Shown piece by piece: positions 11,079 through 27,743 of a stretch of 63,027 nucleotides of DNA; position 1 is the first letter of the stretch, and each line of letters starts with the position of its first letter. The notes under the pieces were generated by a model. The model was given only the letters and a program-made list of their open reading frames with translations, searched no databases and was not told where the DNA came from. This stretch comes from an uncultured Bacteroidales bacterium. Lineage in GTDB: Bacteria; Bacteroidota; Bacteroidia; Bacteroidales; JAFGXI01. Position numbers and translations under genes: made by a program. The stretch is from the NCBI GenBank assembly GCA_947311115.1, contig CAMZKE010000017.1:1-63027 (forward strand). The letters are read 5' to 3'.

Positions 11079-13523
11079 TTATAATTTTATACCCATTACT
11101 AATATATCGTCAATTTGATTTAGATTGCCTTTCCAACTATAAAATGTTTCCTCTAAAATATTTTGTTGCTCACTCATTGGTTTTTGCGAAATGTTAAATA
11201 ATAATTGTTTAAACTTTTTATATTTAAACTTTTTACCTTTTACACCACCAAATTGGTCAGCAAACCCATCAGAAAATAAATATATTATATCGTTTTTTTG
11301 TAGTTTAATTTTATGATTTGTAAAATTATCCATTCGTGCATAAATAGATATTGGCATATTATCCGGTTTTACTTCGTAAAAACCATCTAAACTTAACTGA
11401 TTTTTAATGTTTGTTTGGCTTATTTTATTTTGAGAAATAATATAAAGCGAATTATTTGCACCTGCATACTCCATTTCATTTGTTTTTGTATTTACAGATA
11501 TTAACGAAATATCCATTCCGTCTTTTTGTTCAAAAAGTTTTCCTTCTTGTTTTAATGAACTTACTATTTCTTTTCGTAAACGATTTAAAATTAAATTTGG
11601 AGTAGTTATATTCTCTTTTTTTACAATTTCGTTAAGTAATGATATACCCAACATACTCATAAATGCACCAGGAACACCATGTCCCGTGCAATCAGCAGCA
11701 GCAATAACAATTTTATCGTTTATTTTTGTCCACCAATAAAAATCACCACTAACTACATCTTTAGGGATAAATGAAATAAATACATCTGTAAAATTTAGTT
11801 TTAATAATCCTATGTTTGGTAAAACCGAAGATTGAATATTCTGTGCATAATCTATACTTTCGGTTAAATGTAAATGTATTTTTTCTATATGTTGTTTTTG
11901 CGAACTTATTTCATCTCTTTGAGTAAGAATTTCTTCATTTTGTTGATTTAATTCTACATTTTTTTCAGCTATCTCATTTTTTTGTTGAGTTAACAATTTG
12001 TTTGCTTTTTTCTTGTTACGTAAGTTAATTAAAATAAGAACAACCACTCCTAAGGAAAGTATAAAGCCTATTATTAAGGCATTTCGCAGTAATTTCTGTT
12101 TTGCAGCTTCTGTTGCTTGTTGTTTAATTAATATTCTGTTTTTCTCTAATTGTTGAGTTTTCTTTTCGGTATCATATTTTGCTTCAAGTTGTTCTATTTC
12201 AGCCATTTTTTTTACATTAAAAATACTATCTTTAACCTGAATATATAATTTTAAATATTTATATGCATTGTTTAAATCGTTTAGCTTTGCATAAGAGTTT
12301 GATAGGCTTTCGTAAGCATTTTTTTTATCGGGATTGGTATTTATTTCTTTTGCAATTTCTAAACCATTCTTTCCATATCTAACAGCAAGATGATAAAAGT
12401 TATTATTCAATGTAGAATCACCAATTGCATTATATATGTGCGATAGTCGTATATAAATTACAGATTCACCTTCTTTATCATCAATTTCTTGTTTTATTTT
12501 AAGTGCTTTTTCGTAATAATATTTTGCTTCTCTTATTTTATTTTGTTCAAAATACAAATCGCCTAAATTTGAGTATAAATTTGCTAATTCAAAATTACTT
12601 TTAGCTTCTTCATAAATTTTCAAAGCTAAATTGTAATATTTATCAGCTTTTTCATAATTTTTAATTTCAATATAATCAAGCCCTAAATTGTTATATGCAT
12701 TTGCAACGCCTATTTTATTACCTAATTTTTCAAAACTATTTAGTGCCTTTGTGTGATATTTAATTGCCTTTTTATAATTATGTTGTTCGTAATGTACTAA
12801 TCCAATATTATTGTAGCACATTGACATTCCTTTTAAATTGTTTGTTTTTTCTTTAATTTTTAAAGTTTTCTGAAAATTTTTTATTGCTTCGGTATAATTT
12901 CCTTTCATATACTCAATTACACCAATTCCATTATAACTATTTGAGCCAATAACATCTTCATCTTCAGGCAACACATTTTTTACCGCTTTTTTGTAATATA
13001 TAATTGCATTATCGTAATCGCCTTTAATATTATAAATATTACCAATATTTACTTCAATATACGGTGCATAACCTTTATTATCGTCATATTTCAAAGCTTT
13101 TTTATAATATTCTATTGCTTTATCGTAGTCTGCTTGTACTTTATATAAAATACCAAATTGATTATATATTTTATTATAAAATGTTTTATTATTGAGCTTA
13201 TTATTTATTTTTAATGCTAAATCTAAATTTTGTTTTGCTAAATTATATTCTCCCTTATCTTTATATAGTTCACCTTTTTGTATATAAATCCTAGTAGTAT
13301 AAGTATTATTATTTATTTCTTTAGCAATATTTAAAGCCTTGTTGTAAAATGTTAAACTTGAATCATAATCTCTATTTTCGTATATATTACCAAAAGTAAT
13401 ATATGCATTTATTACAGCAGTATCGGTTCCGTAATTTATTATTTTGTTTAAACTATCAACATTTATTGGGTATAATACCTTTACAAATAGTAAAAAAAGT
13501 ACTAGAAAGGCGTTATTTTTCAT
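11079..13523 (-). CDS. TPR-repeat sensor with one TM helix, a coiled coil and a C-terminal PP2C (SpoIIE-type) phosphatase
   Basis: This 814-aa ORF has more than 10 TPR-like repeats (Y..A...Y.KAL), a TM helix LIIGFILSLGVVVLILINL, and the PP2C motifs KDVVSGDFYW and DCTGHGVPGA. The C-terminus is QIDDILVMGIKL. Confidence 0.8.
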   Translation of the reverse strand: MKNNAFLVLFLLFVKVLYPINVDSLNKIINYGTDTAVINAYITFGNIYENRDYDSSLTFYNKALNIAKEINNNTYTTRIYIQKGELYKDKGEYNLAKQNLDLALKINNKLNNKTFYNKIYNQFGILYKVQADYDKAIEYYKKALKYDDNKGYAPYIEVNIGNIYNIKGDYDNAIIYYKKAVKNVLPEDEDVIGSNSYNGIGVIEYMKGNYTEAIKNFQKTLKIKEKTNNLKGMSMCYNNIGLVHYEQHNYKKAIKYHTKALNSFEKLGNKIGVANAYNNLGLDYIEIKNYEKADKYYNLALKIYEEAKSNFELANLYSNLGDLYFEQNKIREAKYYYEKALKIKQEIDDKEGESVIYIRLSHIYNAIGDSTLNNNFYHLAVRYGKNGLEIAKEINTNPDKKNAYESLSNSYAKLNDLNNAYKYLKLYIQVKDSIFNVKKMAEIEQLEAKYDTEKKTQQLEKNRILIKQQATEAAKQKLLRNALIIGFILSLGVVVLILINLRNKKKANKLLTQQKNEIAEKNVELNQQNEEILTQRDEISSQKQHIEKIHLHLTESIDYAQNIQSSVLPNIGLLKLNFTDVFISFIPKDVVSGDFYWWTKINDKIVIAAADCTGHGVPGAFMSMLGISLLNEIVKKENITTPNLILNRLRKEIVSSLKQEGKLFEQKDGMDISLISVNTKTNEMEYAGANNSLYIISQNKISQTNIKNQLSLDGFYEVKPDNMPISIYARMDNFTNHKIKLQKNDIIYLFSDGFADQFGGVKGKKFKYKKFKQLLFNISQKPMSEQQNILEETFYSWKGNLNQIDDILVMGIKL

Positions 13524-17317: not shown

Positions 17318-18238
17318 TTATTTAACAATAAAATTTCTAACATTCTCTACCTCTGTAGCAATACTATTTATTTGTTCATCAGTAATATTAACAATACTAG
17401 TTTCATTTTGTACAATTGTTAATATTCCATCAACTTCAACAGCTTCAGGTTCGCCAACTTCATAGGTAATAGTAACTTCTTTAAACAAATCTTTAATTTT
17501 ATTTATTTTTTCAATTAGTTCAAAAAACTTTTTGTTTCTTTTAAAATTATTAAGAATTAACAACAAATCGTTCATCATTAGTTTTTGTTCGCCAATTCTT
17601 TCTGCAATTTCCTTATTTGGAGTTTCTTTAACTACTTGTGTAGCCAAGTATAAACCTTCTAGCCAAACACCTGTTACAATTAAAGCACTTACATCGCTTC
17701 TATTGTTTTCTCGTAAAAACACATCCATTTGGTCGAAACTACTAACCGATATATACATTAGTGAATCTAAATTATCACTGTTTGTTGCCAAGCGTTTTAA
17801 TGTAGAAAAATCGAAAAATTGCCCAACCTTTAAATTATCTGATAATGTTTTAATCGATGTTATATAAGATAATACAGTACCAGTTTTATTATACATATTT
17901 AGATACCCTAAATCAGCACCATAAATACCTAAATTTAAAGCTTGTTCAAAACCTGTATTATACGAATCAATATTATCAGAAGAATTTAGGTACTTGTAAT
18001 TAAATTGAGCTCCACTTTCTTTTATTAATGATGCCATTTCTACGGGAGATGACATATTTGAAATAATTCCTTCCATTGCCTGTTCGGAAACAACTAAAGG
18101 TTCATCATCTGCCAATACCGAATCAGGTACTGAGAAATCGTCGAATCCATCAGATTCTGTATTTTCTGACGTGCCACCGCAAGAAAACAGAAGCGATAGT
18201 GCCACAACGAAAATAAAAAATTTACTAATTCTTATCAT
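17318..18238 (-). CDS. Lipoprotein, unknown function
   Basis: This 306-aa ORF has a lipobox LLFSC at residues 16-20, followed by an acidic linker. Confidence 0.55.
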   Translation of the reverse strand: MIRISKFFIFVVALSLLFSCGGTSENTESDGFDDFSVPDSVLADDEPLVVSEQAMEGIISNMSSPVEMASLIKESGAQFNYKYLNSSDNIDSYNTGFEQALNLGIYGADLGYLNMYNKTGTVLSYITSIKTLSDNLKVGQFFDFSTLKRLATNSDNLDSLMYISVSSFDQMDVFLRENNRSDVSALIVTGVWLEGLYLATQVVKETPNKEIAERIGEQKLMMNDLLLILNNFKRNKKFFELIEKINKIKDLFKEVTITYEVGEPEAVEVDGILTIVQNETSIVNITDEQINSIATEVENVRNFIVK

Positions 18239-18287
18239 ATTTTATTTATTTGATTGTAAAATTAAAAAAAAATCTTAGATAAAAGAA

Positions 18288-21200
18288 TTATTTCTTAAAT
18301 CTAAACTCTAAAACACGTTTAAATATATTGAAATACAAGAAAATATATAATATTAAAGTTAATATCCAAACAACTATTATATTAAAGTAATAAGTATCGA
18401 AAAATCTACCTGCAAAGTATTTTTGAGGTGCATAAAAGTGACTTCTAAAGTCTAAAAAGTGAGTTGGCGATGGGTCTAAATATATTAAATCAACTTGCTG
18501 TATTAATTTATCACCATCTTGAATAATTTTATGCTGTTCAAAAACCTTTTTTACAATATCTGAAATACTTTGATTATAGTAATTATCTTTATTTAATTTA
18601 TAAACATCACCTTTTTGTTCGGTATAATAATCTATCATTCGTTGCTTTTTATCGTAAGCTTTTTGAAACATTATACCGTAATACTTATTTAAGTCATCTA
18701 AATAACTATTTGCCATATATAGAATATAATCGTTTAGTGAGTCACGACTTATTGATTGAATTAAGTTATTACTCACTCCTTTCATTAATGGCTTTTGTTT
18801 GGTAAATTCGTGTCTTACCATAGCTAAATTAATATCAACTTTCGATACTATATCATCTCTTTTATTTTCAACATTATCGAAGCAATATTGTAATTTTTCT
18901 TTAACTTCAGGTATATAGTAAACTTGCATAAAGTTAGCTACACTCATTTTCTTTTCTACATCAAAAAACTGTCGTTCAAATTTATTATCTTTAAACTGAT
19001 GAACCATTAATGCTTCATACATCCATTTTGATGTCATAAACTCAGCTATAAGCGGTACTTTATCGATACTACTAACAGCTTTATTCAATTTTTCGAAGCT
19101 AAACATAGCTCCTCCTAATATCATTTGAGGAATTAGCACTAAAGGTATTATAATATAAATAGTTACAGCCGAATTAAATGTCGCAGATATATTTAATCCA
19201 AGCATATTAGAAAAGGCAGCCGTTGTAAACAAGGCCAGCCAATAATACATATTCATATCTCTAATACCTAAAATATAGTTACCAATAAGTACAAAAAAGC
19301 CTGTTTGTATTGCTGAAATTACAAATAATATAGTAACTTTTGAGAGCAAATAACTCGACCTGCTAAGATTTAAAAACGATTCTCGTTTAAGAATTTTGCG
19401 GTCTCTAAAAATTTCTTCGGCACTAACTGTTAGCCCTAAAAACATTGCTACCACAATACTCATAAAAATATATGGTGGTATATTTTCGTTTTCACGATAA
19501 ATATAGTGAGAAGAATTTGGGTCGGCTATATAACGTATAATAAATGAAAGAATTACCGATAATATAGGTGCTTCTAACATGTTTAATGCTATATACTGTG
19601 TATTACTTATTTTTGATAAAAAATCGCGAGTCAAATAAATATATATTTGGCTTAACCAACGTGGAATATTTAATGACTTTGGGGGTTGCTCGTCAACTTC
19701 CTCAAATGTATCTTCTATTTTGTTTTTTTCATATAAGTCTGACCACTCTTGCGGGTTTACTTTTCTATCTTCTTGATATACTCCATACTCATCAACTACA
19801 CGAGCCTCAATAATATTAAAAACGAGTTCAGGATTAACATTACCACAAAGCGAACACTCTCCTTCATCGCTATTAATTTGAGCATCTAATCGTTTAAAAT
19901 ACATTACCGACTCAATAGGATTACCGTAATAAACCTGATACCCACCGGTATCTAATACAATAACCTTATCAAACATTTTATAAATATCAGACGATGGTTG
20001 ATGTATTACTACATAAATTAGCTTTCCTTTTAATGCTAATTCACGAAGCAAATCCATAACATTTTCTGAATCGCGCGATGATAAACCTGAAGTAGGCTCA
20101 TCAACAAATAAAATTGAGGGTTCTCGTATTAATTCAAGTGCAATATTTAATCTTTTTCGTTGTCCACCACTAATTAATTTGTTTAAAGGGCTTCCTACTT
20201 TTAAATTTTTACGTTCTAAAAGTCCTAAATTTTTTAATGTTTTGTTAACAAGCTTAGTTAATTCTTCTTTATTTTTATCTCTAAAACAAAGCTTTGCACT
20301 ATAATATAGGTTCTGAAATACAGTAAGTTCTTCTATTAATAAATCATCTTGCGGAATAAAACCAATAACGCCTTCTGTTTTTTCTTTTTGCTCGTATAAA
20401 TTATAACCATTTATTTCAATGCTACCAGCCGAAGGTTTATTCATTCCGGAAAGCACATTTAGTAATGTAGTTTTACCTGCACCACTTGCCCCCATTATTG
20501 CAATAAGTTTACCTTGATTTTCGTTTATATTAATATTTCGTAAACCTAAGGCACCATTAGGAAATTTATATTCAATATTTTTGGCAACGTACGATATATT
20601 AACAAAATTGTTATCCTTTTTATATTGCGATATTACATCGCTATAATATATTGGTTTACCTTTCGAGAGTTTTAATGTACTTCCGTTTGCAAATACGTTA
20701 ATTCTTTTCCCATTAACTATTAAGCCGTTAAGATAAAATTCTAAATCGCCGGTATAACGAATAAAATATTGTTCTGTATTTTCTATTTGAAGAATTATTA
20801 ATTCACCTTCAATGCCTTTCATATTTATAGAAAGACAGCTTTTATTATTCGTTTCTTCTGATGATATTATTAATAAATCTTCAGAACATTTTAATTCCTC
20901 AATATTTTGAGAGAACACAAATGTTTCAATATTTTTTACATCTTTAACATCAATATTAAAAACTTCAGCAACGGTATGAATAATAGCCATTCGTTGCTCG
21001 GTAAATTTTCTGTCGGAATTTACCAATTCGAATAAACGAACTAACACAATAACTTTTTGTTTTTGTGTTAGTGTTTTATTAATTTTTTTTGATATTCCAA
21101 GAATTTTAACCGAATCGCCAACTGAGGTTAATTTACGTTTCTTTTTAGGTTTTACATCCTCAATATCAGTATTATCTAATTCTTTTTGTTTTTTAGAATA

Positions 21201-21368
21201 ACCTGACTTTTTATCGAAAAGCTGTAAATATTCTTCAACTTTTGAGCCAGAAACTTGCTGACGAAGAGTTAACATAACAAAGTCACGCTCACTATCTTCA
21301 ACACCATCATCTTGTTTTGCAATTATTGCATATAATTGCATCAAAGCTTTTAGAATTTCTTCACTCAT
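18288..21368 (-). CDS. ABCG-type fused ATPase-permease with an N-terminal TerB-like region and a possible FHA-like beta domain
   Basis: This 1026-aa ORF has two TerB-like half sites in aa 1-150 (IIAKQDDGVEDSERDF; LVNSDRKFTEQRMAIIHTVAEVFNI). Aa 160-250 are beta-rich (YLNGLIVNGKRI...GSTLKL). It has Walker A GASGAGKTT, signature ISGGQRKR and Walker B LFVDEPTSGLS. Multiple TM helices follow, then a ~230-aa tail with a final TM. Confidence 0.75.
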   Translation of the reverse strand: MSEEILKALMQLYAIIAKQDDGVEDSERDFVMLTLRQQVSGSKVEEYLQLFDKKSGYSKKQKELDNTDIEDVKPKKKRKLTSVGDSVKILGISKKINKTLTQKQKVIVLVRLFELVNSDRKFTEQRMAIIHTVAEVFNIDVKDVKNIETFVFSQNIEELKCSEDLLIISSEETNNKSCLSINMKGIEGELIILQIENTEQYFIRYTGDLEFYLNGLIVNGKRINVFANGSTLKLSKGKPIYYSDVISQYKKDNNFVNISYVAKNIEYKFPNGALGLRNININENQGKLIAIMGASGAGKTTLLNVLSGMNKPSAGSIEINGYNLYEQKEKTEGVIGFIPQDDLLIEELTVFQNLYYSAKLCFRDKNKEELTKLVNKTLKNLGLLERKNLKVGSPLNKLISGGQRKRLNIALELIREPSILFVDEPTSGLSSRDSENVMDLLRELALKGKLIYVVIHQPSSDIYKMFDKVIVLDTGGYQVYYGNPIESVMYFKRLDAQINSDEGECSLCGNVNPELVFNIIEARVVDEYGVYQEDRKVNPQEWSDLYEKNKIEDTFEEVDEQPPKSLNIPRWLSQIYIYLTRDFLSKISNTQYIALNMLEAPILSVILSFIIRYIADPNSSHYIYRENENIPPYIFMSIVVAMFLGLTVSAEEIFRDRKILKRESFLNLSRSSYLLSKVTILFVISAIQTGFFVLIGNYILGIRDMNMYYWLALFTTAAFSNMLGLNISATFNSAVTIYIIIPLVLIPQMILGGAMFSFEKLNKAVSSIDKVPLIAEFMTSKWMYEALMVHQFKDNKFERQFFDVEKKMSVANFMQVYYIPEVKEKLQYCFDNVENKRDDIVSKVDINLAMVRHEFTKQKPLMKGVSNNLIQSISRDSLNDYILYMANSYLDDLNKYYGIMFQKAYDKKQRMIDYYTEQKGDVYKLNKDNYYNQSISDIVKKVFEQHKIIQDGDKLIQQVDLIYLDPSPTHFLDFRSHFYAPQKYFAGRFFDTYYFNIIVVWILTLILYIFLYFNIFKRVLEFRFKK

Positions 21369-21411: not shown

Positions 21412-21792
21412 TTACGATTCGTAACTAACCAATTCAATTGGTACATCAACAATATCAGCATATTCTTCGCCAGCTTCTTCCATATCTTCATCATCATCAG
21501 GGAAGTACCATTTTACAAGAACTTCTTTATCGTCTTCGTGCATTTCTTCTAATTTCATTAATACATCTAAAAGTAATTTTGATGAAGCTGTATTGAAATA
21601 CTCTAATTTGAATTCAAAAACAATCTTTTTAGAGTATTCTTCGGCAAGCTCTTCAAGCCACTCTAAAATTGGATCATAAAAAGCTGTAACATCTTCAGGC
21701 ATTGAACGTCCTGATATTTGGAATATTCCATTTTCGGCATCTAATATTACGCTAGGGATATCATCTCCACCTTGTATTTTTATTGCTTCCAT
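21412..21792 (-). CDS. SiaC-like DUF1987 partner-switch phosphoprotein
   Basis: This 126-aa ORF has the motif LEYFNTASSKLLLDVLMKLEE, which matches the DUF1987/SiaC YLNTSS.K...D.L core. It also has an acidic C-terminus. Confidence 0.7.
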   Translation of the reverse strand: MEAIKIQGGDDIPSVILDAENGIFQISGRSMPEDVTAFYDPILEWLEELAEEYSKKIVFEFKLEYFNTASSKLLLDVLMKLEEMHEDDKEVLVKWYFPDDDEDMEEAGEEYADIVDVPIELVSYES

Positions 21793-21797
21793 AATAT

Positions 21798-22373
21798 TTA
21801 TTTTTTTCTTTGAATTACTGTGGTTAATATAAAAAATGATGTATTATCATCTACTTTCTTAAAACTAAAATCTAGTTGAGAACCTGTTTTTCTTGCTATA
21901 TCAATAAAACCAAGACCAGCTCCTTTTTTTTCTGACAGTTTTCCTTCTCTAATTTGTTGTTTATACAATGCTTTTAGTTCATCTTTATTCATGCCGTTTA
22001 ACATTTCTAAAGACTCTCTTAGCCCAACAACATTTTCTTCAGCAATTAAGTTGCCTGTAGTTATTTTATAAACTTCATCGGTTTTATGTACCATAAAAAT
22101 CCCCCTACCATCTTTTGAGTATGATTCTGAAGGATTCTCGGCATGTTTACTAATATTTTGTAAACATTCAACCATAACATGAAAAACTTTTCGCTGTGTA
22201 GCTCCTGATTCTTCATCATCATTCATTTTTTTTTCTGTAAGCGAAGTAAATGCTTTTGTAATACTATGAGTAATTTCGCCTTCGTAAACAAGGCTAATAT
22301 CATTATCCCTCATAGTTTTATGAAACTCCATTACTGCATCTAAAAATGACTTATTTATTTTATTACTTTCCAT
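21798..22373 (-). CDS. SiaB-like (anti-sigma/HATPase-like) protein kinase
   Basis: It has N-box-like ECLQNISKHA and G-box-like KGAGLGFIDIARKTG. I prefer the ATG at 22373, 10 nt after the upstream stop, over the TTG at 22400 in the ORF track. Confidence 0.65.
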   Translation of the reverse strand: MESNKINKSFLDAVMEFHKTMRDNDISLVYEGEITHSITKAFTSLTEKKMNDDEESGATQRKVFHVMVECLQNISKHAENPSESYSKDGRGIFMVHKTDEVYKITTGNLIAEENVVGLRESLEMLNGMNKDELKALYKQQIREGKLSEKKGAGLGFIDIARKTGSQLDFSFKKVDDNTSFFILTTVIQRKK

Positions 22374-22383
22374 AAAAAATATT

Positions 22384-25017
22384 TTAAAATTCAACACCAA
22401 TCATTAATATATCATCAATTTGTTTATTCTCAGCTTTCCAATTTACAAATTCTGTTTCAAAATATTCAGAATATTGCGACATTGAAAATTTATTATTTTT
22501 AACTATACCTTCTCTAATTTGTTTTGCTTGATATTTCTTTCTATTTGGACCTCCTATTTGATCTGGATAACCATCAGAAAAAATAAATATTTTATCTCCT
22601 TTTTTAATATCAATTATATAATTAGTAAAGTTCTTTTCTTTTTTCTTTTTGTGAGGAATTCCTCCAATTGCTTTTCTGTCTCCTTTAAACTCTTGTAATT
22701 CGCCATTTCGTAGTAAATATAATGGTCGGTGAGCACCGGCATAATATAATTTATTTTCGTTTAAATCGTAACGACAAAGTGCAACGTCCATACCATCTCT
22801 ACTATTAGCACCTTCTACATCTTGACGAAGTGTTTTACGTACTCCATGATGTAAATTATCAAGTATAACACCTGAGTCTAATACTTTTTTGTGGTCAACA
22901 ATATTATTTAACTGGAAATAACCGATAAATGATAATAATGCTCCCGGTACACCATGCCCTGTACAATCTACAGCTGCAAAATATATATTATTATCGCGTG
23001 TAAACATCCAAGGGAAATCACCACTTACTACATCTTTTGGTTTGTAGAATATAAAAGAATCTGAGAAGTAGCTTTGTAAGTTAGTAGTTTTTGGTAATAT
23101 AGAACCTTGAATACGTTTAGCGTAGTTTATACTCTCTGTTATTTTTTTATTTGTATTTTCAATCTCAATCTCAATTTCTTTACGTTCGGTAATATCATGT
23201 GCAACTATAAGTACAGTTTCTAAATCTTTATTTTCATTAAACTCAGGAATAGAATTTACCGACATATAACGCTTACCAAGGTTACTATCTAGTTCAAATT
23301 CATTTTCTTGAATAATAGGATTGTTAATCAGCAAATGTAAAGCATTAGTGAAAAAATTAACAATTTCCGTATCAACTTCAGAGTCTGTAATAAGTTTATT
23401 ATTTACAGTTTTTGCATCAACACCTGTATATTTCTCAAAAACAGGATTTACATAATAAATTTTACCCTCTAAACTTAATCGCATTATTAAATCTTGCGAA
23501 TTTTCTGATAAAGCTTGCATTTGACCTCTTCGTCGCTGCTCTTTTTCTGCTAACTTACGAAGAGTTATGTCTCTGGTATTAAATAATATACCGTTGATTA
23601 TTGGATTATCTATTAAATTTCTACAAGTAGCTTCTAACCATATTAGGCTTTCGTCTTTTTTATAATATTCAAATTCAACAGTAATAGGTGATAACGGATT
23701 TTTAATTATATTTTCGAAAGTTTCTTCTACAATTTTTCTTGTTGCTTCCGATACTCTATCTAAACCATTTGTTCCAACAGTTTCGGTATGTGAATAACCT
23801 AATATATTTTTAACCGAAGGACTTTCGTATTTTACAACTCCTTGTTCATCATATATTGTAATTACTTCCGATGCATTTTCTAAAAGAGTATGTTGTCTAA
23901 GCTGTGCATCTTGAACTTCTTTAATTTTTTGTTCTAAATCAATATTTGCTTTTTCAAGTTCTTCTTGAGTAGCAATCATTTCTTCTGCATTCTGCCTTAA
24001 TTCTTCTTCATTTTCTTGAAGTTCTTCGGTCATACGTTGCGATTCGTCTAACAGTTTTTGTGTTTTATAGTTTATTATTAAACTAAATAACGATTGACCA
24101 ATCATATCACTAATACCTTCAACAAAACTTATCACTTTTTTAGACATGCTGTCTTCAATAGCTGCAATTTCAATAACTCCACGTAATTTTTCGTCACTTA
24201 TAAGTGGCACTATTAAAATACTACCCGGCTTTTTTTCACCTAATATTCCTGATGTTATTGTAACATAGCCTTCAGGTATTTCTGTTCTATAAACTGTATC
24301 AAGTTCATAAGCTGCTTGACCAATAAGCCCTTCTCCTATTTTAAACTCTTGTTTTATAAACTTTTTTCTGTTATATGCATAAGATGCATAGTTTACAAGC
24401 ACTTTATTATCTTCGTCATAAATATAAAACGAGCCTTGTATTACATCAACATAATTTATAAGTACTTTTAGTACATTGTATGACAATTCATTAAGGTCGG
24501 TAAATTCCCTAAGTACATTTGATATTTTATCTCTTCCTTTAATTATCCAATTTTGCTCTTTTTCTTTTATTGAAGATGATAATAAATCATTCTTCATTTT
24601 TAATAATACCTTGAATAAGGGGTCTTTTTCATCAAGAGTGTCTTTTACTTCTATATCGTAATTTCCTTTTCCTACCTCTTTTGCAAAGCTGGAAACTTTT
24701 TCAATATATCTTTCTTGTTCTTCTATATATATATCAATTCTTGATTGGTCTTTTTGTATTTTTAAAGCTAATAAATAAGCTACAAAACCTAATATTAAAG
24801 GAGCCATATCAATAATAAAATGCATAGGGTTTTCCATGTGCATTTGCCATATCATATCAATACCATATCCTCTATAAACTAAATCAAAAATCCATGCAAT
24901 AATTGGAAACATAAGTCCAAAAAGCATGCCTCCGACAGGATACCTCCTTGTTTTACAAGAAAGCCCAAATGCTCCGCATTTATTGTTATTGTTATTATTT
25001 ATTTCGCTTGTTGTCAT
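22384..25017 (-). CDS. Membrane-anchored GAF / coiled-coil / 2xPAS / PP2C (SpoIIE, SiaA/RsbU-like) phosphatase
   Basis: This 877-aa ORF has 2 TM helices (aa ~30-85) and a GAF domain (aa ~175-310, GEGLIGQA...ILIVPLI). An EEL-rich coil spans aa 326-356, followed by two PAS-like blocks. The PP2C motifs are KDVVSGDFPW and DCTGHGVPGA, and the C-terminus is QIDDILMIGVEF. Confidence 0.8.
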   Translation of the reverse strand: MTTSEINNNNNNKCGAFGLSCKTRRYPVGGMLFGLMFPIIAWIFDLVYRGYGIDMIWQMHMENPMHFIIDMAPLILGFVAYLLALKIQKDQSRIDIYIEEQERYIEKVSSFAKEVGKGNYDIEVKDTLDEKDPLFKVLLKMKNDLLSSSIKEKEQNWIIKGRDKISNVLREFTDLNELSYNVLKVLINYVDVIQGSFYIYDEDNKVLVNYASYAYNRKKFIKQEFKIGEGLIGQAAYELDTVYRTEIPEGYVTITSGILGEKKPGSILIVPLISDEKLRGVIEIAAIEDSMSKKVISFVEGISDMIGQSLFSLIINYKTQKLLDESQRMTEELQENEEELRQNAEEMIATQEELEKANIDLEQKIKEVQDAQLRQHTLLENASEVITIYDEQGVVKYESPSVKNILGYSHTETVGTNGLDRVSEATRKIVEETFENIIKNPLSPITVEFEYYKKDESLIWLEATCRNLIDNPIINGILFNTRDITLRKLAEKEQRRRGQMQALSENSQDLIMRLSLEGKIYYVNPVFEKYTGVDAKTVNNKLITDSEVDTEIVNFFTNALHLLINNPIIQENEFELDSNLGKRYMSVNSIPEFNENKDLETVLIVAHDITERKEIEIEIENTNKKITESINYAKRIQGSILPKTTNLQSYFSDSFIFYKPKDVVSGDFPWMFTRDNNIYFAAVDCTGHGVPGALLSFIGYFQLNNIVDHKKVLDSGVILDNLHHGVRKTLRQDVEGANSRDGMDVALCRYDLNENKLYYAGAHRPLYLLRNGELQEFKGDRKAIGGIPHKKKKEKNFTNYIIDIKKGDKIFIFSDGYPDQIGGPNRKKYQAKQIREGIVKNNKFSMSQYSEYFETEFVNWKAENKQIDDILMIGVEF

Positions 25018-25031
25018 TCTTTATTTTTTTG

Positions 25032-25766
25032 TTAATGAACATTTATTATGTTCTCCGAAATTTTATTTACAGATTCATTAATAATATTCTTATCATTTTC
25101 GGTAAACTCGTTTAATGAAGCAATTTCGGCTACTGCTACAACACTATTATCTATTATTGCCGGTACTATAAGTAATGATTTAGGATTTCCTTTTCCCAAG
25201 CCTGATAATATTGTAATATAACCATCTGGTATATCATCAATACTTAACATTTTTTTATCTTTTATTGCTTGCCCGATTATGCCATCACCTTCTTCTACGT
25301 TACTTATTTCTTTTTCAGAATAGTAAGCATAGGTACTTATTGGCTTAAAGATATTGTCCTCGCTCTTTAAGTAAAAAACTGCTTGTGCTATATTTAATTG
25401 TTTAGCTAAATTTATTAATTGCTTTTCAACATAATTTTCTGAATTTTGCTCTTTATTTTTTGATGTTATTATTAATTCTTTTGTTTCTTCTTTATCTTCA
25501 ATCATTTCAAATATTTCAGTGTTATCAATACTTTCAACGCTATCATCATTAACATAAACCTCTTTAATAACTTCTACTTCTTTTACTATTGTTTTTCTTG
25601 AAAGTAAATTAATTACTAATAATAGAACTACTAATGCATCAATAATACCAATAAGTACAAACCCATTACTTTCTTTATCTATTGTATCAATTTCTAAATA
25701 CGACAAAATCAGTATTATTGATATTAATACAATATTAGCAATATTTCTAAAATTTAAAGCCTTCAT
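25032..25766 (-). CDS. Membrane-anchored stand-alone GAF-domain protein
   Basis: This 244-aa ORF has 2 N-terminal TM helices. Its GAF block (GDGIIGQA...IPDGYITILSGLGKGNPKSLLIVPAI) is a clear paralog of the GAF in 22384..25017. Its start overlaps the CheB stop by 1 nt. Confidence 0.7.
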   Translation of the reverse strand: MKALNFRNIANIVLISIILILSYLEIDTIDKESNGFVLIGIIDALVVLLLVINLLSRKTIVKEVEVIKEVYVNDDSVESIDNTEIFEMIEDKEETKELIITSKNKEQNSENYVEKQLINLAKQLNIAQAVFYLKSEDNIFKPISTYAYYSEKEISNVEEGDGIIGQAIKDKKMLSIDDIPDGYITILSGLGKGNPKSLLIVPAIIDNSVVAVAEIASLNEFTENDKNIINESVNKISENIINVH

Positions 25767-26323
25767 TATATATTGTTTAAAAAATTAATAATTCCCTGAG
25801 TTGTTAATACTTCATCAGGAGTTGTTATATCAATAGCTGAACTTGGCATTGTTTTTATTTGTGCTTCATTAGGGTCTTGAACTATTACTTTACCACCATA
25901 ATCTTTTATTCGTTTTATACCTTTTGCACCATCTTTATTTGCACCCGATAAAATAATTCCAATTACTTTATCGCGATATGATGTTGCTGCAGAATAAAAT
26001 GAAAGATCTATTGATGGTCTTGAATGATTTACAACCGGTTCGGTTGATAAACTAAATTTTTGACCATATTCTATATACATATGATAATTAGCCGGAGCTA
26101 AATAAACCATTCCTTTTTTTATTATATCTTTATCATACGGTTCAATAATTTGTAAATTAGACTTTAACGCAAGTGCTTCTACAAAACCTGAACGTATATG
26201 TTTTAATCTATGCAAACATAGGAATAATGGTAAATCAAAGTTTTTAGGTAACGAACTAAGTATTTTAGTTACTACCTGAAAACTACCGGCACTACCACCT
26301 ATTATTACAGCTTTATATTTCAT
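25766..26323 (-). CDS. cheB: CheB-type protein-glutamate methylesterase, catalytic domain only (no receiver domain)
   Basis: This 185-aa ORF has IIGGSAGS (Ser), CLHRL (His) and SGANKDGA (Asp) in the CheB catalytic-triad order. Confidence 0.75.
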   Translation of the reverse strand: MKYKAVIIGGSAGSFQVVTKILSSLPKNFDLPLFLCLHRLKHIRSGFVEALALKSNLQIIEPYDKDIIKKGMVYLAPANYHMYIEYGQKFSLSTEPVVNHSRPSIDLSFYSAATSYRDKVIGIILSGANKDGAKGIKRIKDYGGKVIVQDPNEAQIKTMPSSAIDITTPDEVLTTQGIINFLNNI

Positions 26324-26326
26324 TAA

Positions 26327-27127
26327 TTATTTCTTTTTATATATTCGTTCAGTATAACACTCCTCTATAAACTTATCGTTTACAGTTCTATTAATAAGAA
26401 TATTCTCTTTAATCCCGATTATTAGTTTTCCCCCTATTTTCAAACTATTGTATAAATTATTTAAAATAATATTTTGAGCATCATCTTTCAAATATATAAA
26501 TTTATTTCTAAATATTATCATATCTTGATTCTTTGGTAATTTACCGGTGAAAAGGTTCAAATTAATAAAACTTGTATTTTTTTGTAATGATTTTAATAAA
26601 CTATTTTCAAAATATTTGCTTAGTTCATCTTTACCTTCAAATCGTTTATAATTTGCTCTATTTAACTCTATTTGCTTAGGTGATATTTTAACTTCTTTTA
26701 TTAAATCAATAGTTTTGTTAGACCAACTTGATACAGTAATTCTTACATTATCAATTAAATTTAACTCGTTTAATAAAACTAAAAGTGTATAATACTCATC
26801 GCCTGTAGTACATGCCGGTATATATATTTTGTAGTCTTTAAAATCTTTTACTGTTGAAATAAGTTCAGTTTTTAACTTACGCCACATAGCAGGGTCTCGA
26901 AACATTTCGGTAAATGGAACAGCAAAAATTGATAAAAATTCATCTTTGTTAATATTTTCTTTGTTAAATTTTACTGCCAACTCATCTGCATTTCTATACT
27001 CAAACACCTCCATAGTATGAATAAGCCTACTTTTTAACGTAGTTGTTGAAAATACAGAAAAATCTACATTAATTGCAGTTTCTATTATTTTAACTATTTT
27101 TCTTTGTTCCGAAATTGTTAAATCCAT
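26327..27127 (-). CDS. cheR: CheR-type protein-glutamate O-methyltransferase
   Basis: This 266-aa ORF has TEMFRDP (CheR TxFFRD motif) and PACTTGDEYYTL in place of the SAM-site AGCSTGEEPYS. Confidence 0.7.
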   Translation of the reverse strand: MDLTISEQRKIVKIIETAINVDFSVFSTTTLKSRLIHTMEVFEYRNADELAVKFNKENINKDEFLSIFAVPFTEMFRDPAMWRKLKTELISTVKDFKDYKIYIPACTTGDEYYTLLVLLNELNLIDNVRITVSSWSNKTIDLIKEVKISPKQIELNRANYKRFEGKDELSKYFENSLLKSLQKNTSFINLNLFTGKLPKNQDMIIFRNKFIYLKDDAQNIILNNLYNSLKIGGKLIIGIKENILINRTVNDKFIEECYTERIYKKK

Positions 27128-27743
27128 TTAATAGTATTCAAAATTCAATTAATTGACAAAATAAAAAAAATATCTGAATAAAAACGAAAATACACATGTT
27201 TTTTTTACTTAATTAAGTATATTTTTGATTAATCACATTAATCAATTAGATAATTAGGATTAATGACTCTTAGTATTTGAAACGTAAACACCACATTTAT
27301 AAGCTATTATAGGTATTTGCAATAAATTCAAAACTACTTGGTAGTAAATAAATTAAATATTTATTAGCTATTAAATAAACACTTCAATAGATAAGTTTAA
27401 ATAACTAATTAATAAAGTGTTAAATAGAAAATATATGTAAAAGATATTCAACTTAAAATAACTAATGATAGTATAAAAATAAGCTAACAAGTTTTATTAA
27501 ATATATTACATTTAAACATAAATATTTAATATTTTTGTACAAGAATTTAAATACTATATAAATATTTTTAATTAGAATATAATAATAAATATTCCGCCAC
27601 AATCAGACGAGATATAAATTTTGAAATTCAGTTTTTTTTTACAAAATAATAGATAGTAATAAAATACAAACATCTAAAAATTAAAATATTAAGTATTTAA
27701 GATTAAAATATTTTGCTTACATATATTTACAGATAAATAACAT

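Follow-up and report, generated by a model that had tools for sequence, protein, structure and literature searches.

Which proteins do CheR and CheB modify in bacteria that have no chemoreceptors? The accepted substrates of these enzymes are chemoreceptors, and many non-motile or MCP-less bacteria retain CheR/CheB. The question is raised by an operon of an uncultured Bacteroidales bacterium, which lies in the window (the whole stretch of DNA that we analysed, 63,027 nucleotides) and encodes CheR and CheB upstream of a sensor-phosphatase (Table 1). The first-pass annotation had noted that the operon has no MCP. This is correct and extends to the whole genome: the 99%-complete assembly has no MCPsignal domain (PF00015), whether in the phosphatase or elsewhere, no CheW domain, and no CheA. 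Comparative evidence from sequences strongly supports the suggestion that a Glu-rich coil within the phosphatase is a candidate methylation site, and the coil is the most likely candidate for a target of the CheR and CheB that are encoded upstream. With modest confidence, based on sequence comparisons and on analogy, we propose that the coil accepts methyl groups as a signalling helix and tunes the phosphatase, which would belong to a partner switch of the SiaB/SiaC type.

Table 1. Features of the operon, of the sensor-phosphatase's coil, and of a second phosphatase in the window.
Feature	Position	Strand	Description
CheR-type methyltransferase, 266 aa	26327..27127	-	First gene of the operon; Pfam CheR, 1.4e-22
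CheB methylesterase catalytic domain, 185 aa, without receiver domain	25766..26323	-	Pfam CheB_methylest, 1.9e-48
Membrane GAF protein, 244 aa	25032..25766	-	Pfam GAF_2, 6e-10; paralog of the phosphatase's sensor part
Sensor-phosphatase, 877 aa	22384..25017	-	Membrane helices, HAMP-like region, GAF (173-310), coil, PAS (385-485), PAS (499-614), PP2C/SpoIIE (675-876); from Pfam
Continuous signalling helix (predicted)	23878..24141	-	Residues 293-380; includes the last GAF helix and the ladder and ends at PAS1's N-cap
Glu-pair ladder	23956..24027	-	Residues 331-354; four E-E-(L/M) units with exact heptad spacing
DUF6272 protein	21798..22400	-	Pfam DUF6272, 4.8e-44; kept in orthologous operons
SiaC-family regulatory phosphoprotein	21412..21792	-	Pfam SiaC, 3.9e-40; kept in orthologous operons
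TerB-ABC transporter fusion (1026 aa) and lipoprotein-like protein (306 aa)	17318..21368	-	Downstream operon members; from Pfam
Weak variant coil of the TPR-PP2C phosphatase	11907..11984	-	Residues 514-539, just past a membrane helix (482-501)

The operon and its enzymes

The CheR and CheB enzymes look intact, judging from their alignments. CheR is similar to CheR from B. subtilis (5ftw; 1e-18) and retains the SAM motif ACTTGDEYYTL. CheB is the sole CheB match in the genome and is similar to CheB from T. maritima (3sft; 3e-27); the residues that we take to be the Ser/His/Asp catalytic triad are conserved in this alignment. By phmmer, both enzymes are closer to the type found in kinase operons (1e-25 to 1e-50) than to the type found in Che clusters (1e-9 to 1e-25). 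In contrast, a quick tree of CheR placed the CheRs from PP2C operons in a clade of their own. The CheR of this operon is the most divergent member of that clade: it has a long branch, is 36% identical to its orthologs, and scores 80 bits with Pfam's CheR model, with no match to CheR_N. It might be under relaxed selection.

The output of the sensor-phosphatase is PAS-PAS-SpoIIE/PP2C (SpoIIE match 5e-13), and Pfam finds no HisKA or HATPase domain. Its homologs number over 2000; the best are Bacteroidales proteins that are named only "PAS domain S-box protein." As in the SiaA/SiaB/SiaC(/SiaD) system of P. aeruginosa, genes for a PP2C phosphatase, a small kinase-like DUF6272 protein, and a SiaC-family phosphoprotein lie in a row. 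We read the DUF6272 protein as the SiaB-like kinase of a partner switch, and the SiaC-family protein is presumably the substrate of the phosphatase. However, the C-terminus of the phosphatase matches NCBIfam's SiaA (2.6e-45) below the equivalog cut-off and over the PP2C part alone, so that the GAF-coil-PAS-PAS part and the CheR/CheB input lie outside the match. Also, instead of a diguanylate cyclase such as SiaD, a TerB-ABC transporter lies downstream of SiaC, as it does in the orthologous operons.

The gene order cheR'-cheR-cheB-GAF-phosphatase-DUF6272-SiaC is kept in all five orthologous loci that have enough flanking sequence, including the position of the 244-amino-acid GAF protein. After SiaC, the transporter and the lipoprotein-like gene are kept in four loci (L121-L124), and the transporter is also present in L125, where it is truncated at the end of the locus. 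(The second CheR of this genome has been relocated to contig C161.)

The Glu-pair ladder of the phosphatase

The minus-strand translation of 23950-24042 is SQRMTEELQENEEELRQNAEEMIATQEELEK, which is residues 326-356 of the 877-amino-acid ORF at 22384..25017. (The first-pass annotation's string for these residues was one residue off from the translation.) The Glu-rich EEL segment that it described between GAF and PAS is real, and is flanked by Pfam's GAF (173-310) and PAS (385-485) domains. The four EE(L/M) repeats are also present, as E331-E332-L333, E338-E339-L340, E345-E346-M347, and E352-E353-L354, but their spacing is exactly 7 residues, not 7-11.

Could this be a chance low-complexity acidic stretch of an AT-rich genome? 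The genome's G+C content is just 29.8%, which favors codons for Glu, Lys, and Asn. But when we searched the window with a DNA pattern that encodes EE[LMIF] in three strict heptads, it matched only at the ladder, with two overlapping matches, and it had no matches in 100 dinucleotide-preserving shuffles of the window. A reversed-pattern control gave zero matches in almost all of 301 genomes, versus up to 49 matches for the forward pattern. And the segment is near-invariant across 114 orthologs. The shuffles, the reversed-pattern control, and the conservation refute this explanation, to which we give practically no weight.

Across those 114 orthologs, the column conservation of residues 328-358 is 0.89, versus 0.71 for the whole protein, and in the phosphatase only the PP2C active site is more conserved than the coil. 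Four glutamates (E332, E338, E346, and E353) are 100% conserved, and so are L333, L340, M347, and L354; the exposed Glu pairs match the core Leu in invariance. The E331 column is E47/Q36, and the E339 column is E90/Q9. (Some of the orthologs carry the precomputed Pfam family PF28175.)

We modelled the whole phosphatase as a monomer with AlphaFold2 (49-sequence alignment, mean pLDDT 80). In the model, residues 293-380 form one helix with pLDDT of 80-91 up to residue 340 and under 50 beyond residue 351, and this drop is expected from a monomer model of a dimeric coil. Together, the sequence and the model suggest that two copies of the helix pair in parallel as a coil between the GAF and PAS domains. 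The core of this coil would be weak, with Leu or Met at position d and the invariant Asn, Asn, and Thr at position a, and the Glu pairs would be exposed, at positions b and c. A sequence search of the PDB found no relative for the GAF-plus-coil region, and NCBIfam has no model for RsbK, for CfcA, or for the coil. The motif strings NEELQS, EELRQN, and EEMRQN were absent from the literature that we searched.

In MCPs, the methylation sites have the consensus Glx-Glx-x-x-Ala-Ser/Thr and the methylation helices are in antiparallel four-helix bundles. The coil resembles these sites in having heptad-spaced Glx pairs on the exposed face of a helix and in the interchange of E and Q at the pairs. One heptad, E345-E346-M-I-A349-T350, fits the consensus fully. 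The others read EELQEN, EELRQN, and EELEKA: the small residues (Ala, Thr) of the consensus are present in one of the four heptads, and the others have Q, E, N, or K. The corresponding sites of an MCP from this order, in matching register, are SSEEMATS and SMEQMVAN. Unlike an MCP, the phosphatase lacks MCPsignal and the hairpin of a four-helix bundle, as AlphaFold2 predicts one continuous helix without a hairpin. So if the operon's CheR acts on the coil, it would have to recognize a scaffold that is unlike the MCP bundle.

We also considered that the coil might be a purely structural S-helix that passes the signal from GAF to PAS or to a kinase, while CheR and CheB, although co-inherited, modify something else, such as the small GAF protein, a target that is not linked, or the phosphatase's own HAMP-like region. 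Helices that link GAF or PAS domains to outputs are common and are often conserved; the model has a single helix that runs from GAF into PAS; and only one of the four heptads has the small residues that the MCP consensus calls for. However, linkers conserve their core and vary at the exposed b and c positions, while the exposed Glu pairs of this coil are invariant. We consider the purely structural role unlikely, and the linkage of the coil to CheR and CheB also bears on it.

Linkage of the coil to CheR and CheB

The module of GAF plus EEL coil is widespread, and the phosphatase carries one copy of it. The coil is tied to CheR/CheB in four architectures: fusions of CheB-CheR-coil-PAS_10; operons of the form [GAF-coil-kinase]-cheR-cheB; clusters of cheA/W/R/D/B that end in a GAF-coil-PAS gene; and the operon described here. 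All nine of the CheB-CheR fusions that we sampled have 5-6 heptads of EEL-x-(S/A)-(S/T)-N between CheR and PAS_10, so the first-pass annotation was right that (N/Q)EEL repeats occur in such fusions. At the threshold that we used, neither GAF nor HAMP was matched in these fusions. (L010 was rejected as a CheB-CheR fusion; it is actually a gene for REC-CheB and then, in the same frame, a gene for an outer-membrane protein.) As for loci within the order with a receiver-less CheB, a GAF-coil hybrid kinase adjoins cheR-cheB in 16 of 20, and the GAF-plus-coil region of these kinases is homologous to the phosphatase's (phmmer 1e-13 to 1e-37). Clusters of the form CheY-CheA-CheW-CheR-CheD-CheB have a GAF-coil-PAS gene directly after cheB in 7 of 10 cases within the order.

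We examined 80 GAF-coil loci, which come from at least 12 phyla: 55 of them include cheR, and 44 of these also have a cheB of about 190 amino acids directly downstream. Where no cheR was adjacent, the genome encoded CheR elsewhere (10 of 10 cases checked). The literature that we searched on CheR fusions and on CheR substrates contained only mentions of KEGG names and work on MCPs.

The coil is the only element that we saw in all four architectures, since the fusions retain it without a GAF or HAMP match; this counts against the reading in which CheR and CheB modify another site. Also against that reading, the small GAF protein, whose C-terminus we inspected, stops directly past the GAF domain, before any coil.

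Coil and CheB are also linked phyletically. Across 301 genomes of the order, co-occurrence of the coil pattern with CheB is almost perfect (145 genomes have both, 20 have CheB only, 9 have the coil only, and 127 have neither), with much of this co-occurrence being non-independent, because fusions and operons carry the enzyme and the coil jointly and because related genomes share history. By family, the counts are 77 with both, 14 with CheB only, 1 with the coil only, and 45 with neither. Within the 24 families in which CheB is variable, the coil tracks CheB in 16 and does the opposite in 2. We inspected five of the nine coil-only genomes individually; the remaining four are single-hit genomes. 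In one (G136), the coil is from a fusion gene that is truncated at the end of a contig. Another (G202) has CheR and lacks CheB. At least one genome, G287, is a true exception, with real coils and no detectable CheR or CheB, in an assembly that is 93% complete and in 330 contigs. The last two (G197 and G283) have one isolated match each, which is unlike the coil motif.

Besides the phosphatase, this genome encodes at least four output-less receptors (dCache-HAMP-GAF-coil-PAS) and two hybrid kinases with a near-identical coil. Six other coil proteins of this genome do not adjoin cheR or cheB, which would fit a purely structural coil. The sharing of the coil also led us to consider that it is a docking or assembly surface, which either tethers CheR or CheB (as the C-terminal pentapeptide of MCPs does) or forms mixed oligomers of coil-bearing sensors, with any methylation occurring elsewhere. 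Output-less receptors need a signalling partner, and a shared coil could mediate this. But an invariant Asn at position a of a coiled coil usually favors in-register homodimers, and the interchange of E and Q at the pairs looks more like sites of methylation and deamidation than like a binding surface. We view the docking role as improbable, and we still favor methylation of the coil itself.

The first-pass annotation had suggested the coil of the TPR-PP2C phosphatase (11079..13523) as another possible substrate. Residues 514-539 of this protein are QKNEIAEKNVELNQQNEEILTQRDEI, with four heptad-spaced units of x-E-(I/L). The heptad spacing is there, but there is a single EE pair, which makes it a much weaker candidate. 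No cheR or cheB is adjacent to its gene.

A proposed role for the coil

There is an experimental precedent for methylation of such a helix. In Bacillus cereus, RsbM methylates the signalling helix that RsbK, a kinase, has after its GAF domain, as shown by a 14C-SAM assay (PMC4574943, citing Chen et al. 2012, Environ Microbiol 14:2788). The methylated element of RsbK is precisely an S-helix (PMC4574943), which is another argument against a purely structural role for ours. Like RsbK, the phosphatase is a membrane sensor in which a GAF domain (residues 173-310) leads directly into a signalling helix (293-380) and on to the output. In both systems, a dedicated methyltransferase gene lies in the sensor's operon (as it does in 5/5 of our orthologous operons), and a partner switch is driven by a PP2C phosphatase at the end of the pathway. 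The methylated residues of RsbK (bc1008) are reportedly two glutamates that are seven residues apart, and RsbM has a CheR-type fold.

The two systems also differ. The output of RsbK is histidine kinase activity on another protein, the REC-PP2C protein RsbY, whereas here GAF-coil-PAS is fused to PP2C; the switch is RsbV/RsbW/sigma-B there and SiaB/SiaC-like here. Furthermore, RsbM has no paired esterase. Since CheB is present here, the methyl mark should be reversible. We draw the link to the S-helix of RsbK by analogy, from the shared architecture and from homology to an RsbK-like protein and to cfcA-like kinases. The RsbK-like protein is a Bacillus homolog (L076; 4HB-HAMP-GAF-coil-HK-REC with cheR only) that carries the EEL coil; the 120 best matches in a search with L076 were all its close orthologs.

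Non-chemotaxis pairs of CheR and CheB are also found beside GAF-containing sensors in pseudomonads. In the cfcABCDE genes of Pseudomonas putida, CfcA is a CHASE3/GAF hybrid kinase and CfcB and CfcC are CheR and CheB (PMC4951495); the bmsA cluster of P. brassicacearum/alkylphenolica is similar in this respect (PMC8175716). Our operon, with its adjacent CheR and receiver-less CheB, shares this arrangement, and versions of the cfc-type cassette from Bacteroidales, Clostridium, and Alcanivorax carry a GAF-plus-coil that is homologous to the phosphatase's. Cultivable carriers of the kinase cassette include Marinifilum flexuosum DSM 21950 (L104) and Clostridium puniceum DSM 2619 (L044). But in the cfc and bmsA systems a hybrid kinase (CHASE3/HAMP/GAF in the cfc type) feeds a diguanylate-cyclase response regulator, instead of a PP2C phosphatase feeding SiaB/SiaC. 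The methylation substrate of CfcB/CfcC was stated nowhere in the literature that we searched.

We propose that the operon's CheR, probably assisted by the relocated CheR on contig C161, would methyl-esterify E332, E339, E346, and E353, which are the second glutamates of the four pairs. CheB would remove the methyl esters, and would also deamidate Gln where orthologs have Gln. E. coli CheB is constitutively active when reduced to its catalytic domain, and by analogy we take the receiver-less CheB to be constitutively active as well. Neutralizing the charges would alter the packing of the coil and hence the GAF signal to the PAS-PP2C output, which would set the phosphorylation state of SiaC via the SiaB-like kinase. 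Since the action of each enzyme would depend on substrate conformation, this could provide adaptation or memory in a non-chemotaxis pathway.

If the EEL coil is the acceptor, then it would be one general answer to the puzzle of "orphan" CheR/CheB pairs. A portable helix of some 30 residues, linked to GAF, would give kinases, phosphatases, and fused enzymes a reversible memory by methylation; the single experimental case of RsbK/RsbM would extend to many phyla; and a partner switch of PP2C, SiaB, and SiaC that controls an ABC transporter operon would be a new output. More tentatively, and with rather less confidence than we would need to assert it, coil-bearing proteins might form a second class of methyl-accepting receptors that is independent of MCPs, with a single CheB and two or three CheRs acting in trans on a family of sensors, and with methylation-based adaptation being general in non-chemotaxis signalling, both in Bacteroidota and in 11 or more further phyla. 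The family in this genome may comprise the phosphatase, the four output-less receptors, and the two hybrid kinases. In relatives with cheA/cheW clusters, the GAF-coil-PAS protein encoded after cheB could even feed the chemosensory array. In the coils of these Che-cluster proteins, one pair has either E or Q as its second residue, apart from one K.

The Glu-pair helix of the sensor-phosphatase

Residues 326-356 of the sensor-phosphatase read SQRMTEELQENEEELRQNAEEMIATQEELEK (translation of 23950-24042, minus strand). Translation and Pfam confirm that a Glu-rich EEL heptad segment lies between the GAF and PAS domains, as the first-pass annotation proposed. The four EE(L/M) repeats are there as well, but they are spaced by exactly 7 residues throughout (E331-E332-L333, E338-E339-L340, E345-E346-M347, E352-E353-L354) and not by about 7-11. 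When the 63-kb window was searched at the DNA level for three strict EE[LMIF] heptads, the coil was the only match, and 100 shuffles gave none. We consider it extremely improbable that the coil is due to chance.

In an AlphaFold2 model (built from 49 orthologs; mean pLDDT 80), all of the Glu pairs are on one unbroken helix, 293-380, whose first part is the last GAF helix and which runs as far as the first PAS domain. Within the heptads, Leu/Met is at position d, the invariant N336, N343, and T350 are at position a, and the Glu pairs are at the exposed positions b and c. The coil might be a docking or hetero-oligomerisation surface, which we think quite unlikely.

We compared 114 orthologs of the phosphatase, mostly proteins from Bacteroidales MAGs that are annotated merely as "PAS domain S-box protein". 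Column conservation was 0.89 at residues 328-358 versus 0.71 for the whole protein; among 31-residue stretches, only the PP2C active-site region ranked higher. E332, E338, E346, and E353 are invariant, while position 331 is Glu in 47% of orthologs and Gln in 36%, and position 339 is Gln in 9%. Methylation sites in chemoreceptors have the consensus Glx-Glx-x-x-Ala-Ser/Thr. The third heptad of the coil fits this exactly, through A349 (85% conserved) and T350 (100%). In the matching register, a genuine MCP from the same order (locus L137) has SSEEMATS and SMEQMVAN.

Features of the phosphatase operon and other proteins with coil-like segments (window coordinates, or contig of the same genome)
Feature	Location	Strand	Remarks
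CheR-type methyltransferase	26327..27127	-	upstream of phosphatase
CheB catalytic domain, without receiver	25766..26323	-	upstream of phosphatase
Membrane GAF protein, without coil	25032..25766	-	upstream of phosphatase
Sensor-phosphatase, 877 aa	22384..25017	-	GAF 173-310, PAS 385-485, PAS 499-614, SpoIIE/PP2C 675-876 (Pfam)
TPR-PP2C protein	11079..13523		heptad run at residues 514-539, after membrane helix: NEIAEKN-VELNQQN-EEILTQR-DEI
Output-less receptors, dCache-TM-HAMP-GAF-EEM coil-PAS (L001-L004)	C78:84469-86946, C69:10354-12657, C66:27401-29674, C14:39918-42746		

Association of the coil with CheR and CheB

In alignments to solved structures, CheR retains the SAM motif and the presumed Ser/His/Asp residues of CheB are conserved; we take these aligned positions to be the catalytic triad. 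The phosphatase is followed by genes for a DUF6272 (SiaB-like) protein, a SiaC-family protein, a TerB-ABC transporter, and a lipoprotein-like protein. (The DUF6272 ORF as listed starts with a TTG, which gives an overlap with the end of the phosphatase gene, at 22373-22400; the ATG nine codons downstream is more likely to be the start.) All five other genomes with enough flanking sequence have cheR'-cheR-cheB-GAF-phosphatase-DUF6272-SiaC, then the ABC transporter and lipoprotein genes, and their coil is MTEEL(Q/K/R)ENEEELRQNAEEM(R/I)(S/A/V)T(Q/H)(E/D)ELEK. In one of these orthologous operons (L124:5789-8384, genome G264), the phosphatase is divided between a 377-aa and a 530-aa ORF that overlap; a frameshift or an assembly error is the probable cause.

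We found the coil with CheR and CheB in four contexts, the fourth being this operon. Thirteen GAF-plus-coil segments align as a single homologous module with invariant EE pairs. First, CheB-CheR fusions do have (N/Q)EEL repeats, as the first-pass annotation stated: in all nine fusions sampled, CheR and PAS_10 are separated by a coil with five to six heptads of the form EEL-x-(S/A)-(S/T)-N. The fusions gave no match to GAF or HAMP at the threshold used, so the coil is the sole element seen in all four contexts. Second, a GAF-coil-HisKA hybrid kinase (1320-1476 aa) adjoins cheR-cheB at 16 of 20 same-order loci around receiver-less CheB genes. Across at least 12 phyla, loci with related GAF-coil segments have cheR directly 3' in 55 of 80 cases, and a ~190-aa cheB as well in 44 of 80; many of the loci that lack them are interrupted by contig ends. 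Third, of 10 CheY-CheA-CheW-CheR-CheD-CheB clusters, 7 have a TM-GAF-coil-PAS-PAS gene after cheB, and one pair position of its coil is E or Q (K once). In relatives, a full Che cluster (L129:3809-12389 and equivalents in L130-L136) encodes, in this order, CheY, CheA, CheW, CheR, a HATPase protein of 291 aa, CheD, and REC-CheB, with an output-less TM-GAF-coil-PAS-PAS protein (~760 aa) directly after it. These genomes also encode ordinary MCPs.

Among 301 same-order genomes, each at least 90% complete, the strict coil pattern and CheB were both present in 145, with CheB only in 20, the coil only in 9, and neither in 127 (per family: 77, 14, 1, and 45), but these counts overstate independence because related genomes share history and because fusions and operons move the enzyme and the coil together. 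At least four of the 20 "CheB only" genomes carry the coil in a form that the strict pattern missed, and the "coil only" genomes that we examined come down to a single real exception, with a fragmented assembly. In the 24 families with variable CheB, the coil tracks CheB in 16 and runs opposite in 2.

A candidate methyl-accepting helix

The conservation, the four contexts, and the phyletic co-occurrence support the original suggestion of a CheR/CheB site, at the candidate level. We lean towards a methyl-accepting signalling helix as the most likely explanation for the coil. Methyl esters would be placed by CheR on the second Glu of each pair and cleaved by the receiver-less CheB. The resulting shift in charge would affect how this deliberately weak coil (Asn/Thr at position a) packs and, through the packing, how GAF is coupled to the PAS-PP2C output, which would set the phosphorylation of SiaC. 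This proposal is directly testable through the second Glu residues of the four pairs, E332, E339, E346, and E353.

Three observations count against methylation: only one heptad of the coil has the full MCP consensus, the scaffold differs from the MCP-type bundle, and the CheR in the window has diverged unusually far (36% identical to its orthologs, versus 50-60% for the phosphatase). We also considered that the coil might be a purely structural S-helix, with the true target of CheR and CheB elsewhere; this is possible but rather less probable. The coil of the TPR-PP2C protein had been suggested as a further substrate. It does have a heptad run, but with a single EE pair and no adjoining cheR or cheB, which makes it a weak candidate.

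The principle is already known from one published precedent. In Bacillus cereus, a methyltransferase, RsbM, adds methyl groups to the S-helix of RsbK, a hybrid kinase (CHASE3-HAMP-GAF-S-helix-HK-REC), which leads to repression of sigma-B; RsbY, a partner-switch PP2C phosphatase, relays the action of RsbK (PMC4574943; PMC9912610; PMC12848376). In Pseudomonas putida, cfcB/cfcC are a CheR/CheB pair without a role in chemotaxis and adjoin the CHASE3/GAF kinase CfcA (PMC4951495), and P. brassicacearum has a similar cluster (PMC8175716). The Clostridium and Bacillus loci in our set have the same layouts as the cfc and RsbK systems and contain the EEL coil. This shared architecture suggests a link between the coil and the biochemically proven helix of RsbK. 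Unlike in RsbK/RsbM, the putatively methylatable helix here is fused to a PP2C/SiaBC switch, and it is paired with CheB in a genome without MCPs. In the literature that we searched, we found no description of the EEL coil motif or of its breadth (four architectures, at least 12 phyla).

Coil proteins and CheR genes elsewhere in the genome

The assembly (3.53 Mb, 29.8% G+C, 99% complete) encodes one CheB, three to four CheR-like proteins, and no MCPsignal or CheW domains. Thus, the earlier remark that the operon lacks an MCP extends to the whole genome. There are at least seven more coil proteins, including two hybrid kinases and four output-less dCache-HAMP-GAF-coil-PAS receptors, one with a C-terminal hemerythrin domain. 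These receptors are chemoreceptor-like in logic, although the genome lacks MCPs, CheA, and CheW. Small, putative hemerythrin-like genes (called from N-terminal sequence only) are directly 3' of the C14 receptor (L004:5495-5914) and of the C108 hybrid kinase (L006:5575-5982). An in-frame TAG (L002:8302-8304; C69:12655-12657) lies in the C69 receptor's second coil where paralogs have Gln (EEMKS*EEEMRQN versus EEMKAQEEEMRQN), and the frame runs on into an extra coil-PAS unit of 134 aa. A nonsense mutation, read-through, or an error in sequencing may explain the TAG.

In a quick tree of CheR proteins, each of the four contexts forms a separate clade, and the fusion and Che-cluster clades are sisters. 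A very long branch leads to the window's CheR, which has no match to CheR_N in Pfam; selection may be relaxed, or the specificity may have changed. The orthologous operons begin with a tandem cheR pair (280 and 275 aa), of which the window keeps only the second, with a 616-bp spacer ahead of it (27128-27743). A stand-alone 280-aa CheR (C161:15064-15669; L008:5794-6636) belongs to the same clade as the missing first gene; its sister is another copy (C49:17515-18111; L007:5974-6810). It seems that the first tandem cheR was relocated within this genome.
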